64,000 bases of DNA from a virus (lineage: Duplodnaviria; Caudoviricetes). A program made the position numbers and the translations under genes. The notes under the pieces were generated by a model. It made no database searches and was not told the origin of the DNA. It worked only from the letters and a program-made list of their open reading frames with translations. The DNA is taken from positions 9,199 through 73,198 of IMG/VR virus record IMGVR_UViG_3300033067_000113; one strand, given 5' to 3'. Positions 36,924-40,872 of the stretch are shown one piece after another. Position 1 is the first letter of the stretch. Each line of letters starts with the position of its first letter.

Positions 36924-37997
36924 ATGAAGATATATGAAATAATCGCGGAAAGTAATCAGGTAGATGAAGGTGTTGCTAGTGCTTTAGGTAAAGGATTAGC
37001 ATGGGCTGGTGGTAAACTGGCTAGTTCTGACATTACTAAAAAAGCAGTTGCGGATCTTGCCGCTGAATATGCTAAACGAGCTATGGCTATTCAACGAGCT
37101 GGAAAAACTGTTCCTCCAGTTAGTGCAAAGTTTATTAAAAATAATGCGCCTAAAGATGCTAAACGATTATTATCTGATCCTAAGTATATTGCAATGATCC
37201 AAAAAGAAGGTGACAAGATTATGCGAAATGCTAACTTGTCTGCTGTAGCTGGTAAAGTTGGCTTGTCAAATCTTGTAAAGGGTTCTAAGTGGGATATTAC
37301 TAAAGCAGTTGGCAGTAAGTTGGTAAAACTCTATTCAACTTGGCAAGTTATCGGCATGTTCAGAGACTATAACTCAAATGTTAATGCATGGGATGCAGAA
37401 CTACAGAAACAACTAGCCGCTGGCAAAATTACACAAGAGCAATATCAAGCACAGCTTGATCATATCCGTAAAACTGAAATGGGATTACTGGTTACTAAAG
37501 TAGGAGCTGGTCTACTTGGCAGTGCTATCGTTCGAGGCACAGTTGCACCAGTTGCAGGCTTGCTTAAACTAATTCCACTAACTGCGCCAATTGGATCTAT
37601 TATTTCTGGTCTAGGTGCCGCAGGCAGTGCGTATCTATACACTAAATTAAATTCTAAAGAAGGTAGCGAAGCAGTTGCTAGTGTTATGGTTGGTAATGCG
37701 TTAGGCGATGCTGCCACTTCTGCTATTGGTGGGACAGTAACTAACGCAATAGATTGGCTAACTGGTACTGCTAAAGAAGCCGCTGAAGTAGACAAACAAC
37801 CAGCTCAAGGTGGCCAAGGCGCTAGTCAAACCCCAGTTAATGCGCCGGGACAACAACTAGCTAAACCTGCTGCTCAACCAGCGGCCGTTCCTACAGCACC
37901 GACAATGCCGGGCAATAATATAACTGCTAGAGGAGATTTAGATACTCCGGCAGGCTACACTAGAGATGCCGCAGGTAATTTAATCTACGGAAATTAA
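36924..37997 (+). CDS. Hypothetical late protein, possible internal head / ejected protein
   Basis: 357 aa with late promoter and RBS. N-terminus MKIYEIIAES, a basic N-half, Gly/Ala-rich hydrophobic helices and a Pro/Gln/Ala-rich tail. Confidence 0.6.
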   Translation: MKIYEIIAESNQVDEGVASALGKGLAWAGGKLASSDITKKAVADLAAEYAKRAMAIQRAGKTVPPVSAKFIKNNAPKDAKRLLSDPKYIAMIQKEGDKIMRNANLSAVAGKVGLSNLVKGSKWDITKAVGSKLVKLYSTWQVIGMFRDYNSNVNAWDAELQKQLAAGKITQEQYQAQLDHIRKTEMGLLVTKVGAGLLGSAIVRGTVAPVAGLLKLIPLTAPIGSIISGLGAAGSAYLYTKLNSKEGSEAVASVMVGNALGDAATSAIGGTVTNAIDWLTGTAKEAAEVDKQPAQGGQGASQTPVNAPGQQLAKPAAQPAAVPTAPTMPGNNITARGDLDTPAGYTRDAAGNLIYGN

Positions 37998-38233
37998 AAC
38001 CACGGTAGTTGAGTTTCTTTAGTAGTTTCTAAGTTATCTTCAATTACCGCATACATTGCGTCACGGTCTTCGCTAGAATAAAAATGTAAGAGTTCCTGCA
38101 TAGATACACCTCCACGCATAAACCAGCTAATTCTAGCTAGTTCTTTTTTAAAATCCTTAATTTGTTGATCTAGCCCAACTAGATACTCTTCAATTTCTTC
38201 GTTAGATAATTTAGTTAGGCGCTGGCGAAAAAA
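37994..38233 (-). CDS. -1 frameshift extension (GT-like) of the tail/hub assembly chaperone; not in ORF track
   Basis: The -1 frame after U_UUU_UUC reads RQRLTKLSNEEIEEYLVGLDQQIKDFKKELARISWFMRGGVSMQELLHFYSSEDRDAMYAVIEDNLETTKETQLPWF* (77 aa, TAA at 37996-37994). No ATG/GTG/TTG occurs before the internal Met. Confidence 0.75.
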   Translation of the reverse strand, partial: FFRQRLTKLSNEEIEEYLVGLDQQIKDFKKELARISWFMRGGVSMQELLHFYSSEDRDAMYAVIEDNLETTKETQLPWF

Positions 38234-39042
38234 CTTGAGTTGTCCATCTCAATAGTGATACTAGATTGATGCCCGCACTCAGGACATTCAACTGGGTGTG
38301 TTGGACTTTCCCATTCGGCTCTTACCTTGGCTAAGTGTTCTTTGATAGCATCAAAGATAACCTTATCGCAGTTTTCCAACCACTCGTTAATATAAGTTCT
38401 TTCAGATACTACAGTATTACCTACTTCTACACTTTCAATACTTGTGGATAGTGCTTCGTTTTGAACTAGGGCAATGTCTTTGAATAAAGCATTCATAAGT
38501 TCTGCTCGTTCTTTGTCGTCTTCAATCTTGTCCGCTTGTCTAATGCGTTGTTGAAGCTGTGCGTTTTTAATTGAGAACTCAGTAATTTGTTTATAGGTTA
38601 ATGGTTGTAGTTTAACTACTAGATCTTTTAAAACAATCTTGTTGTCATACTTACAATTGGTATAGTGATCGATTAGTTTAGATAATTCTAATGTGTAGTC
38701 GTTAACTGTTTTGCAACCTGGGCACACATGTTCCACTTCCATAAGGTTACCAAATGTAGCAATACGGATAGCAGTGAGAATTAAGTCAACATCTAAGTTG
38801 CTAACATCCCATCCGTTTTTAATCACAGGGCAACAGCTTTCAATAACCTTAACTGTAGTCTCACCTGAGTACAACGCATCAGGTGTTTTGATCAGTATTT
38901 CATCCATGCCGGTCATTCCGTACACAGGCATGTTCTCCACAGGCCCTTGTAGTGTACCTGGCTGGTTAAATGCACCTTTTGACGGTAAACTAATGTAGAT
39001 CTTAGGTTGTCTAAAGAACTGTTGTAATGGGTTTTGTGACAT
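38215..39042 (-). CDS. Baseplate hub / tape-measure assembly chaperone, gp26-like
   Basis: 275 aa with RQPKIYISLPS.G...PVYGMTGMDEILIKTPDAL.SG...DLILTAIRIATFG and two CxxC pairs (CPGC, CPEC). Divergent from the tape-measure-like gene. Confidence 0.7.
   Translation of the reverse strand: MSQNPLQQFFRQPKIYISLPSKGAFNQPGTLQGPVENMPVYGMTGMDEILIKTPDALYSGETTVKVIESCCPVIKNGWDVSNLDVDLILTAIRIATFGNLMEVEHVCPGCKTVNDYTLELSKLIDHYTNCKYDNKIVLKDLVVKLQPLTYKQITEFSIKNAQLQQRIRQADKIEDDKERAELMNALFKDIALVQNEALSTSIESVEVGNTVVSERTYINEWLENCDKVIFDAIKEHLAKVRAEWESPTHPVECPECGHQSSITIEMDNSSFFASA
38227..38233 (-). other. Slippery heptamer U UUU UUC (programmed -1 frameshift site)
   Basis: Minus strand reads AGT TTT TTC GCC AGC GCC TAA, a correctly phased X XXY YYZ heptamer three codons before the stop. 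Confidence 0.7.
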
Positions 39043-39069: not shown

Positions 39070-39077
39070 TATTTATA
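39070..39077 (-). promoter_or_regulatory. Late promoter (full T4 consensus TATAAATA) for the gp26-like gene
   Basis: Plus-strand tatttata equals minus-strand TATAAATA. GGAG Shine-Dalgarno (plus ctcc 39049-52) precedes ATG 39042. Confidence 0.75.
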
Positions 39078-39102: not shown

Positions 39103-40872
39103 ATGGCAGTTGAAAACGGCGCAGAGTTTATATCCTTCTTAGGAACGGCAGCAACCGGTCTGGGCAAACTTGCGACAGGTACTGCTGACCTTGGCACAGC
39201 TATGGGAGTAGCTACTAGTTCGCTTAAACTAATTCCTGGCGTAGGCGATGGCTTGAGCAAGCTAGCAGGCGGAACTGCTGAGTATACCATGGCTGTTAAT
39301 AAAGCTGCCAATGCTGGCTCTAATTACGGTACAGCAATGGCTAATAATGTTGGACAGTTGCAAGAATTGACTAAAAATTCTCGCATGACACTGGATGACT
39401 ACAACAGAATTTTAGCTCAGAACTCTGTTGGCATGAGCGGCATGGGTAAAAACATGGACGAGTCTGCCAAACGATTTTTACAGTTTGGTGCTATTTTACA
39501 AGAGTCTAATGTTGCAGAGAATTTAAAGAAAGCAGGTGTTAGCGAAAAAGATTTTAATGACTTACTGGCTATTTCTATGACTAATCGTAGAACATTAGAC
39601 ATGAATGATTCAAAAGCTAAACAGGCTGCAATTGAAGGAACAATGCAACTAGCTCAACAGATGGACGAAATTGCTAGAGTCACTGGTAAGAGTGCAGAAG
39701 CCCAGCGCAAAGATTTAGCAACTAGTTTAGCAAGAGCTGATGTTCAAGCTGAATTGCTAGGCATGTCAGATGCACAGCGCACTGAATACATGAAAATGAA
39801 AGCAGCCGTTGGCCCGCTTGGCGAATCAATCGGTAGTCTTGCAGATGAAATCGCAACTGGCGGTGTTAGAACTAAAGAAGGTTCAGCTAAGTTTGCTGCC
39901 TTAGGTCCAGCAGGTGCTGATTTTGAAAAAGCAGTACTAGCAAGCAAAAATGCTGTGACGCAACGAGAGAAGGACGAAGCCGCTGCCGCAATGGAACGAG
40001 CTAAAGTTCGAATCACTGAATATCAAACAAGTAAAGAATTTAGAGACCAAGTTAAGTATGACACAACTGCTACTGGTGATGCAGCTCGTAAGCAGTTCCA
40101 AGAAAACGCAACTATTAACTCTCAACTTGCCGCAATTAGAAATGACGGTATTAAGACTGAGAAAGAATTAATTGACGCAAAGAAAGACGCTGCTAAGAAA
40201 AGCGTAGAAGGTAAAGATCCAACTACTGGAAAAGTAGATCCAGGTAGTGTAGTAGGGCAAGGATTAAACAAAGCAGAAATGGCCATGCAAGCGACTGTAG
40301 CGGCTGTTGGCGGGCAAATTAAAAAGCTCGGTGATGAAGCTGGTGCAGCCGCAGCCAATGTAGGATTGCTTGCTAAAATTCCAACTACTAGAGCACAGGT
40401 TGAAAAAACTGGTGGCGATCTTATTAACAAAGTGACTGGTGCTAAAACAACTCCGCCGTCTACTGTAGGTTACACTCCGGGCGCACAGCCGGTAAGTAGA
40501 GCAGAAGGCTCATTAGGATCAGTTGGTAAGCTAATTGAAGATTTTGGTAAAGGTACTCCGGCAGTGTTGCACGGTAAAGAAGGTGTTGTTACTGAGAATC
40601 AATTAAACGGTATTATTGCTCAAATTAAATCAGCGGCACAAGCAGAAGCTAGCAAAGTATCAGAAAGCGCTGCATCCAAAGTATCGACGACATCTACAGC
40701 AGAACCAGCTGTAGCAAGCAATAATTCATCCATGACTGAACTAGCGACCCAGCTAAGTCAGTTAAATAAGATGATGGGACAATTAGTATTTTATTCTGAA
40801 CAAACAGCCGAGAATACAGGCTCACAGATTAAAGCTACTAAAGGTTTGTCTGGTAATAGATTGGCCTTCTAA
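39103..40872 (+). CDS. Tape-measure-like protein (gp29 analogue)
   Basis: 589 aa, Ala/Gln/Lys-rich and predicted helical, with C-terminal motif EDFGKGTPAVLHGKEGVV. Adjacent to the frameshifted chaperone. Confidence 0.6.
   Translation: MAVENGAEFISFLGTAATGLGKLATGTADLGTAMGVATSSLKLIPGVGDGLSKLAGGTAEYTMAVNKAANAGSNYGTAMANNVGQLQELTKNSRMTLDDYNRILAQNSVGMSGMGKNMDESAKRFLQFGAILQESNVAENLKKAGVSEKDFNDLLAISMTNRRTLDMNDSKAKQAAIEGTMQLAQQMDEIARVTGKSAEAQRKDLATSLARADVQAELLGMSDAQRTEYMKMKAAVGPLGESIGSLADEIATGGVRTKEGSAKFAALGPAGADFEKAVLASKNAVTQREKDEAAAAMERAKVRITEYQTSKEFRDQVKYDTTATGDAARKQFQENATINSQLAAIRNDGIKTEKELIDAKKDAAKKSVEGKDPTTGKVDPGSVVGQGLNKAEMAMQATVAAVGGQIKKLGDEAGAAAANVGLLAKIPTTRAQVEKTGGDLINKVTGAKTTPPSTVGYTPGAQPVSRAEGSLGSVGKLIEDFGKGTPAVLHGKEGVVTENQLNGIIAQIKSAAQAEASKVSESAASKVSTTSTAEPAVASNNSSMTELATQLSQLNKMMGQLVFYSEQTAENTGSQIKATKGLSGNRLAF

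Follow-up and report, generated by a model that had tools for sequence, protein, structure and literature searches.

We analyzed a 64,000-nucleotide stretch of a Caudoviricetes genome (positions 9,199 to 73,198 of IMG/VR record IMGVR_UViG_3300033067_000113, hereafter the window) and focused on the reverse-strand gene at 39042-38215, which encodes a baseplate hub assembly protein of the T4 gp26/gp51 family. According to our analysis, the best explanation of the end of this hub gene, and a highly probable one, is that a single gp26/gp51-family gene carries a programmed -1 frameshift and yields two products, a gp26-like protein of 275 amino acids (aa) and a gp51-like protein of 349 aa. The frameshift at the heptamer U_UUU_UUC is itself very probably real, judging from the comparison of related sequences.

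The hub reading frame ends ..NSSFFASA* over the codons AGT TTT TTC GCC AGC GCC TAA, with the TAA at 38217-38215. Direct reading of the reverse strand, on which all these elements lie, places the slippery heptamer T_TTT_TTC at 38233-38227 in X_XXY_YYZ phase, three codons 5' of the frame-0 stop. The -1 frame is shut by a TGA at 38251-38249 and is thereafter open until a TAA at 37996-37994. The resulting extension (37994-38227, base 38227 being read twice) has 77 codons followed by the TAA and contains the motif W-[YF]-M-R-G-G. Its earliest ATG, GTG or TTG is an ATG at 38119, codon 37 past the slip, which leaves 36 codons without a start. A spacer of 6 nucleotides (nt) at 38221-38226 (alignment columns 11-16) separates the heptamer from a putative frameshift-stimulating stem-loop at 38173-38220, made of a 5' arm (38220-38210), a loop of 26 nt and a 3' arm (38183-38173). 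The predicted -1 product has 272 + 77 = 349 residues and the junction ..SSFF-RQRLTK.. The original prediction had described this gene end, the phased heptamer, the upstream TGA, the start-less frame and the two products; every one of these features was found as described and the arithmetic holds. An open -1 frame behind a gene is nevertheless no rarity in this window, because downstream operon genes often overlap in that frame. The case therefore rests on comparative evidence, which strongly supports the frameshift.

In the mechanism that we propose, the majority of ribosomes would terminate at the TAA at 38217-38215 and release the 275-aa short form. A minority would pause at T_TTT_TTC, held by the stem-loop 6 nt downstream, and the two tRNA-Phe would shift back by one base, from UUU UUC to UUU UUU. 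These ribosomes would then read the -1 frame for 77 codons and produce the 349-aa long form, which would carry an additional small helical C-terminal domain. UUY A-site codons that re-pair cognately on UUU are among the efficient bacterial -1 motifs (PMC4066793). As read from its sequence, T_TTT_TTC has a pyrimidine at both X and Z and agrees with the rules for such motifs (PMC4066793).

The family assignment of the hub gene is supported by profiles and by fold. The 275-aa protein matches PF12322 (T4_baseplate) with 62 bits, against a cut-off of 24.5, and phrog_150 ("baseplate hub") over residues 2-272 with an E value of 1.8e-18. Its AlphaFold2 (AF2) model (predicted local distance difference test, pLDDT, 89.4; predicted template modelling score, pTM, 0.84) matched a "baseplate hub assembly protein, T4-like" in BFVD (TMq 0.89, E 4.5e-22), as well as gp26 of Aeromonas phage 25. 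Foldseek of the same model against the PDB returned nothing under E 0.4, and no solved structure of the PF12322 family was found. The wide VIA-align search gave only generic helical-hairpin matches (Z up to 8.0 over 56 residues), which we set aside as a common arrangement and not kinship. The protein contains two CxxC pairs, a putative zinc ribbon, and a C-terminal FF motif. Residues C107, C110, C253, C256, F271 and F272 are all invariant in a 64-sequence alignment of the window's clade. Across the jumbo phages and T4 gp26, C110, C253, C256, F271 and F272 are still invariant, while C107 is kept in at least 90%.

Conservation of the slip site, the second frame and the downstream stem

When 4 kb of DNA surrounding the site was compared by megablast with 50,697 phage records, no match emerged, and relatives were therefore reached through proteins. 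At least 563 IMG/VR relatives were matched. The window's clade was sampled by 80 IMG/VR loci with 65 distinct hub open reading frames (ORFs), 49-60% identical to the window hub. Further clades were represented by 13 distinct loci, fetched with the in-frame fusion protein P0023 and 22-27% identical to it. To these were added 14 cultured jumbo phages (CBB, GAP32, PA5oct, RaK2, Serratia BF, Yen9-04, 121Q, XaC1, Atu_ph07, Phosso, XacN1, Xoo-sp13, CM1 and RsoM2USA).

The original prediction had proposed conservation of the heptamer and of the start-less second ORF in relatives as a check. Our results showed that the heptamer is kept in phase in every one of the more than 100 distinct relatives examined. 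It reads T_TTT_TTC in every relative but four, including 80/80 IMG/VR relatives, and T_TTT_TTT in the remaining four (XacN1, Xoo-sp13, CM1 and RsoM2USA). The 13 loci of further clades and the cultured jumbo phages have the same architecture as the window, a heptamer followed by a -1 ORF. The codon before TTT TTC ends in T in all 80 IMG/VR relatives, being AAT, AGT, TCT, ACT, GAT or GCT. In the same 80, the second Phe codon of the slip site is always TTC, whereas the rest of the gene uses TTT 526 times and TTC 78 times; the C of this TTC is base 1 of an invariant Arg codon in the -1 frame. At this site, the columns of TTTTTTCG have an entropy of 0.

Two side observations concern the same part of the gene. 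Loci L104-L125 and many of L021-L100 read ..TCA AAT TTT TTC.., so that a second in-phase heptamer, A_AAT_TTT, overlaps the first; with xxA AAT ahead of TTT TTC, these relatives thus have tandem slippery sites. Locus L094 (IMGVR_UViG_3300032242_000890) has an in-frame TAA at 2209-2211, about 35 codons before the heptamer, in a hub gene that is otherwise intact and followed by the usual heptamer and extension. This premature stop may be a sequencing error or the mark of a broken copy.

The frame behind the heptamer behaves as coding sequence. The -1 ORF spans 70-82 codons in every relative where the frame was read through, and in the window's clade the extension is exactly 77 aa long in 76/76 complete relatives. 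No start is conserved: among the 80 relatives, the first canonical start of the -1 frame is found anywhere between -52 and +107 nt, and the commonest one is the internal Met of the conserved WYMRGG motif. Upstream of this Met, R1 and L4 of the extension are invariant and I12 and L16 are invariant or nearly so; the mean column identity of the extension alignment is 67%. The corresponding frame of PA5oct contains zero start codons throughout. In loci L006-L008, a -1-frame TAG stands immediately 5' of TTT TTT, and the -1 frame can therefore be entered only at the heptamer. Column entropy at the three codon positions is 1.16/0.88/1.50 for frame 0 upstream of the heptamer and 0.96/0.59/1.21 for frame -1 downstream, so the coding phase changes at the heptamer.

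AF2 models the extension as a small three-helix domain (pLDDT 89.4) with an invariant W..RGG loop. The extension may be a docking or oligomerisation module. A BFVD search with the model found small uncharacterised phage proteins only. The helix-loop-helix-like matches of a wide VIA-align search (Z up to 5.6) were rejected as a common arrangement and not kinship.

RNAalifold, applied to 63 distinct sequences, predicted an 11-bp stem that starts after the 6-nt spacer and shows compensatory changes in 6 of its 11 pairs. Within this alignment 95.5% of the stem cells are paired. Neither the covariation score nor the percentage paired was reached by any of 500 shuffles (0/500), and sliding the stem partner by 1-3 columns lowers pairing to 15-55%. 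The 5' arm includes the frame-0 stop codon. The window hairpin by itself has a predicted energy of -13.6 kcal/mol. Atu_ph07, Phosso and the L107/L108 clade, with different sequences, have strong stems of -23 to -33 kcal/mol at the same 6-nt spacing.

In-frame fusions and the T4 paralogues gp26 and gp51

A search with the extension profile against 1.84 billion representative proteins gave 278 matches. One group consists of 41-aa fragments beginning at the internal Met and another of calls of 58-75 aa. In a third group of at least 19 clusters, with proteins of 319-351 aa, the extension is an in-frame C-terminal domain, and all these fusion clusters have a PF12322 N-terminal part. The fusion junction reads ..LDLDxxxxF-R-xKL.., with one Phe. 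The DNA context of the fusions comes from one protein, at locus L126 (metagenome contig Ga0316221_1017412), where the fused gene (1041-2048) reads AAT CTC TTT CGT, without a heptamer; a locus search with a second fusion protein, P0037, found no match. Since the fusions are joined at the predicted residue, the predicted fused protein exists as an ordinary gene product elsewhere. The original prediction had listed an in-frame fusion without the heptamer among the findings that would speak against frameshifting. Such fusions do occur in other lineages; they leave the frameshift standing and indicate that the fused protein is a real product.

Directly upstream of the fused gene, L126:3-1037 encodes a second member of the PF12322 family (hub profile E 3e-42), which ends ..GSNFLPDNQ* and has neither the CxxC pairs nor the extension. 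The ORF that follows the fused gene (L126:2052-3224, 391 aa) has N-terminal hydrophobic segments and a coiled-coil-like middle, and may encode a short tape-measure-like or membrane protein. One match of the extension profile was set aside as unrelated: P0098 (1435 aa; Flg_new, Listeria-Bacteroides repeat) was hit in five stretches (E 2e-10), and its composition or its repeats probably account for this.

In T4, genes 26 and 51 are needed for baseplate hub assembly (PMC3004832). Both gp26 (208 aa) and gp51 (249 aa) match phrog_150 (E 7e-71 and 3e-84, respectively) and PF12322 and, judged by these profiles, are PF12322 paralogues of the window hub gene. T4 gp26 resembles the short product: it shares PF12322 and phrog_150, the CxxC pairs and the FF near the C-terminus, after which two to four residues precede the stop. 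Its last residues are ..KEFFELL*. Unlike the window gene, it codes its FF as TTC TTT and has no heptamer and no -1 ORF, gene 25 being next downstream. In NC_000866, T4 gene 26 is annotated with a second product, 26' (115802-116089, 95 aa), made from an internal in-frame start. T4 thus also makes nested products from gene 26, by another route.

T4 gp51 resembles the long product. Its family domain continues in frame into a helical tail at the C-terminus, and the point of transition is equivalent to the slip site: the PF12322 match stops at residue 201, and 48 residues follow in frame after ..DVF-KLLVNPDEI. Side by side, the gp51 tail reads ..DVF-KLLVNPDEIF...MIPAERGFVLKLIEKDKQ and the window reads ..SFF-RQRLTKLSNEEI...SSEDRDAMYAVIEDN.. 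Unlike the predicted long product, gp51 needs no recoding, being encoded separately by a gene that has its own promoter side, and its tail has 48 aa, compared to 77 aa here, and no W-[YF]-M-R-G-G loop. In newer Pfam this tail is a family of its own, PF28602. Comparison by hhalign of a profile of 63 extensions with a profile of 92 gp51 tails gave a score of 23.9 (P 1.4e-4, probability 52%), against 9.2 for the reversed control and 15.2 for the best of 40 column shuffles. When a full-length profile of natural and virtual fusions was compared with the gp51 family, one collinear alignment was obtained (14-348 against 4-258; P 3.5e-5, probability 72%). Compared with gp51 as one sequence, the alignment of extensions gave a match in the wrong register with a probability of 2%. 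A signal, weak but specific, was obtained only when profiles were compared with each other, and homology of the extension to the gp51 tail is suggestive.

The number of PF12322 genes per genome is two in T4 and one each in 121Q, Atu_ph07, PA5oct and a 96%-complete relative of the window (G001). We consider it reasonably likely that T4 gp26 is the counterpart of the short form and T4 gp51 that of the long form. As far as the sequences indicate, a short and a long form would co-occur in three ways: from one frameshifted gene, from tandem paralogues as in L126, or from divergent paralogues as in T4 26/51. Jumbo phages would then obtain the pair from one gene by recoding, and T4 and at least one in-frame-fusion lineage would use two paralogues. 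By extrapolation from T4 genetics, the function would be the assembly of the central hub around the tape measure, in which the short form would act like gp26 and the long form like gp51. A fixed short:long ratio, set by the frameshift, would play the role that G:GT has in lambda.

Points against the frameshift and rival explanations

Several observations weigh against the frameshift or against its connection with T4. The FF pair is also conserved as a protein motif, which T4 gp26 codes as TTC TTT, so that selection on the protein accounts for part of the T-richness of the slip site. In some clades the predicted downstream structure is weak or absent; among the weak cases are the L104 clade, 121Q and RaK2. 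The hub stop of 121Q, Atu_ph07 and Phosso shares bases with an ATG (as ATGA or TAATG), and initiation of its own or coupled to the hub gene could, from the sequence, contribute to expression of the extension in these three phages. An independent start was another finding that the original prediction had expected to count against a slip. The three phages do have an ATG at the hub stop, yet they keep the heptamer, and the frameshift is not refuted by them. In two of them, Atu_ph07 and Phosso, a strong stem is likewise retained at 6 nt from the heptamer; the structure predicted for 121Q is the weak one mentioned above. As to T4, a hidden Markov model of the extension found no match in the whole T4 genome at E up to 10. 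The original prediction had linked the window gene to gp26 and gp51; this link holds in that both are paralogues and resemble the short and long products, but the extension is only weakly similar to the gp51 tail (hhalign probability 52-72%).

The ATG at the hub stop also bears on whether the 77 codons form a small gene of their own, giving no fusion, with ribosomes that initiate on it directly or reinitiate after terminating at the hub stop. The overlapping ATG in Atu_ph07, Phosso and 121Q would suit such a gene, as would the short "hypothetical proteins" that GenBank annotates at the extension position and the many 58-75-aa calls in the protein library. However, the window's clade has no conserved ATG, GTG or TTG, and the commonest first start, the WYMRGG Met, lies 36 codons in. 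R1 and L4 are invariant though they lie upstream of any start, and the frame of PA5oct is without any start codon. An independent gene leaves unexplained the invariant heptamer, the rare TTC, the covarying stem at 6 nt and the in-frame fusions, and we regard it as improbable. Slippage could otherwise take place during transcription, if the RNA polymerase added one U in the T6 run and the ribosome did not slip. Bacteria and phages provide known cases of polymerase slippage on long A/T runs; the slip site is itself a homopolymer of T, and RsoM2USA has a T9 run there. Six T are, however, short for efficient polymerase slippage, which moreover needs neither the X_XXY_YYZ phase nor the conserved C at position 7 nor the covarying stem at 6 nt. 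A strict heptamer phase, the position-7 C and a covarying stem spaced by 6 nt are hallmarks of ribosomal -1 frameshifting, and we give transcriptional slippage little credence as the explanation of the conserved site.

It could also be argued that the two frames are an assembly or sequencing artefact or belong to a decaying gene, the true gene being an in-frame fusion in which seven T were miscalled as six. Homopolymers are error-prone, and in-frame fusions do occur in other lineages. Yet more than 100 independent assemblies, from various samples and platforms and including finished genomes of cultured phages, agree on the length of the run and have a frame-0 stop 1-11 codons after it. This stop sits within the conserved stem, and the natural fusions have a single Phe codon and no T run. 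The comparative data across assemblies therefore make an artefact very unlikely, to the point of being nearly negligible. As a separate observation on one lineage, the slip site of RsoM2USA (L154, MG752970) is a nine-T run, GTT TTT TTT TCC, and from this sequence transcriptional slippage could add to or replace ribosomal slippage there.

Genomic context, known frameshift systems and significance

The window comes from a distant T4-type phage and represents its structural region, with a baseplate wedge and hub operon and genes for a late sigma factor, a gp46/47-like nuclease, a portal, a prohead protease and a major capsid protein. The contig to which the window belongs has a length of 73 kb. 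Close relatives are IMG/VR contigs of 356-372 kb, and the nearest cultured relatives of the window hub, at 25-32% identity, are RaK2-like and other jumbo phages. On the reverse strand, about 28 nt upstream of the hub ATG, the sequence reads TATAAATA (39070-39077), which we take to be the T4 late-promoter consensus, and GGAG is located 8 nt 5' of the ATG. These two upstream elements suggest late expression of the hub gene, like that of T4 gene 26. On the other side, a forward-strand ORF of 357 aa (36924-37997), without a match in Pfam, PHROG or NCBIfam, converges on the extension. Its stop (37995-37997) overlaps the extension stop (37994-37996) on the opposite strand, and there is therefore no intergenic space.

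The divergent neighbour of the hub gene (39103-40872, forward strand) encodes 589 aa, rich in Ala, Gly, Lys and Gln, a tape-measure-like composition. No match was found in Pfam, PHROG or NCBIfam, tblastn against the phage records was empty, and BLASTP against T4 gp29 and the 121Q neighbour gave nothing significant. In the ESM Atlas, the nearest named clusters are tape-measure families (0.91-0.92), which is a lead only. The counterpart in G001 has 855 aa and only the last 56 residues in common. In RaK2, the gene in the corresponding position is annotated as similar to tape measure protein, and the CBB and PA5oct counterparts were detected in virions by mass spectrometry (MS). The CBB virion MS table lists the neighbour, CBB_251, and not the hub homologue, CBB_250. 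Taken together, the neighbour is probably the tape measure protein; the original prediction was right to call it divergent and tape-measure-like, and its identity is no firmer than probable. Adjacency of hub and tape-measure genes is not universal, since the annotated tape measure of Atu_ph07 lies at a distance of 15 genes from the hub gene (PMC6102473).

The original prediction had labelled the site as lambda G/GT-type. A frameshift in tail genes is described as conserved in long-tailed phages (Xu, Hendrix and Duda, 2004, as cited in PMC9024508, reference 38). As in lambda, a tail-assembly gene with a heptamer close to its 3' end would, through a -1 slip, give a short and a long protein with a common N-terminus, the gene adjoins a probable tape-measure gene, and, by analogy, the ratio of the two forms would follow the frameshift efficiency. 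In lambda, G/GT sits between the tube and tape-measure genes on the same strand, whereas the window gene is divergent from the tape-measure-like gene and has no tube gene adjacent. Moreover, the window family is PF12322, a hub assembly protein with a putative zinc ribbon and no sequence relation to gpG/gpT, and no gpG/gpT-type tail-assembly-chaperone family was matched by the hub part or the extension in Pfam, PHROG and NCBIfam scans. The label was therefore dropped, although a remote structural kinship may exist, the VIA and Foldseek searches having given nothing informative. A role as tape-measure chaperone in the manner of G/GT, which would rest on analogy, is doubtful. Such a chaperone would bind the tape measure with its short part and the tube protein with its extension and would be absent from virions, for which the CBB virion table is the sole pointer.

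The cassette can also be compared with Escherichia coli dnaX, in which a homopolymeric heptamer and a downstream stem-loop give two forms of a single assembly protein, tau and gamma, at a fixed ratio. The window has the same bacterial-type -1 arrangement of homopolymeric heptamer and downstream stem-loop. Slipping shortens the product in dnaX, where an upstream Shine-Dalgarno-like element is a further stimulator; in the window it would lengthen the product, and no conserved upstream element of this kind was seen.

No report of a frameshift in the gp26/gp51 family or in RaK2-like phages was found in the full-text literature, subscription journals being outside the scope of the search. None of the cultured jumbo-phage GenBank records inspected has a ribosomal-slippage feature. 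The annotation of 14/14 cultured jumbo-phage genomes inspected lacks the long product. Their extension is unannotated, as in JQ513383 (RaK2) and NC_071039 (PA5oct), or appears as a truncated "hypothetical protein" of 40-77 aa, as in NC_025447 (121Q), NC_041878 (CBB), NC_019401 (GAP32), NC_042013 (Atu_ph07) and others.

As read from these sequences, the window gene appears to be a lambda-like solution in architecture, yet outside the G/GT family, that is, a tail-assembly frameshift in an unrelated protein family and phage group. It would extend this kind of frameshift, known from lambda-like phages, to an unrelated family in T4-related jumbo phages. It also offers an explanation for the presence of two paralogous hub-assembly genes in T4, where for decades it has been unclear what gp26 and gp51 do in hub assembly. 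If gp26 and gp51 are the short and long versions of one ancestral protein, both would be needed together and the C-terminal tail would be the functional difference between them. For the evolution of recoding, a single requirement, a short and a long form, would be met by recoding, by tandem paralogues or by divergent paralogues. A bolder and tentative possibility, again by analogy, is that gp26/gp51 does in T4-type contractile-tail phages what G/GT does in lambda. The tape measure would then have the short form as its chaperone, and the long form, through its extra helical domain, would dock the complex to the hub or tube initiator; the ancestral state would be a single frameshifted gene, from which T4 26/51 and the L126 pair would have arisen by duplication and loss of recoding. 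If true, this would extend the rule of a conserved tail-assembly frameshift to the one major group of phages that was thought to be without it.

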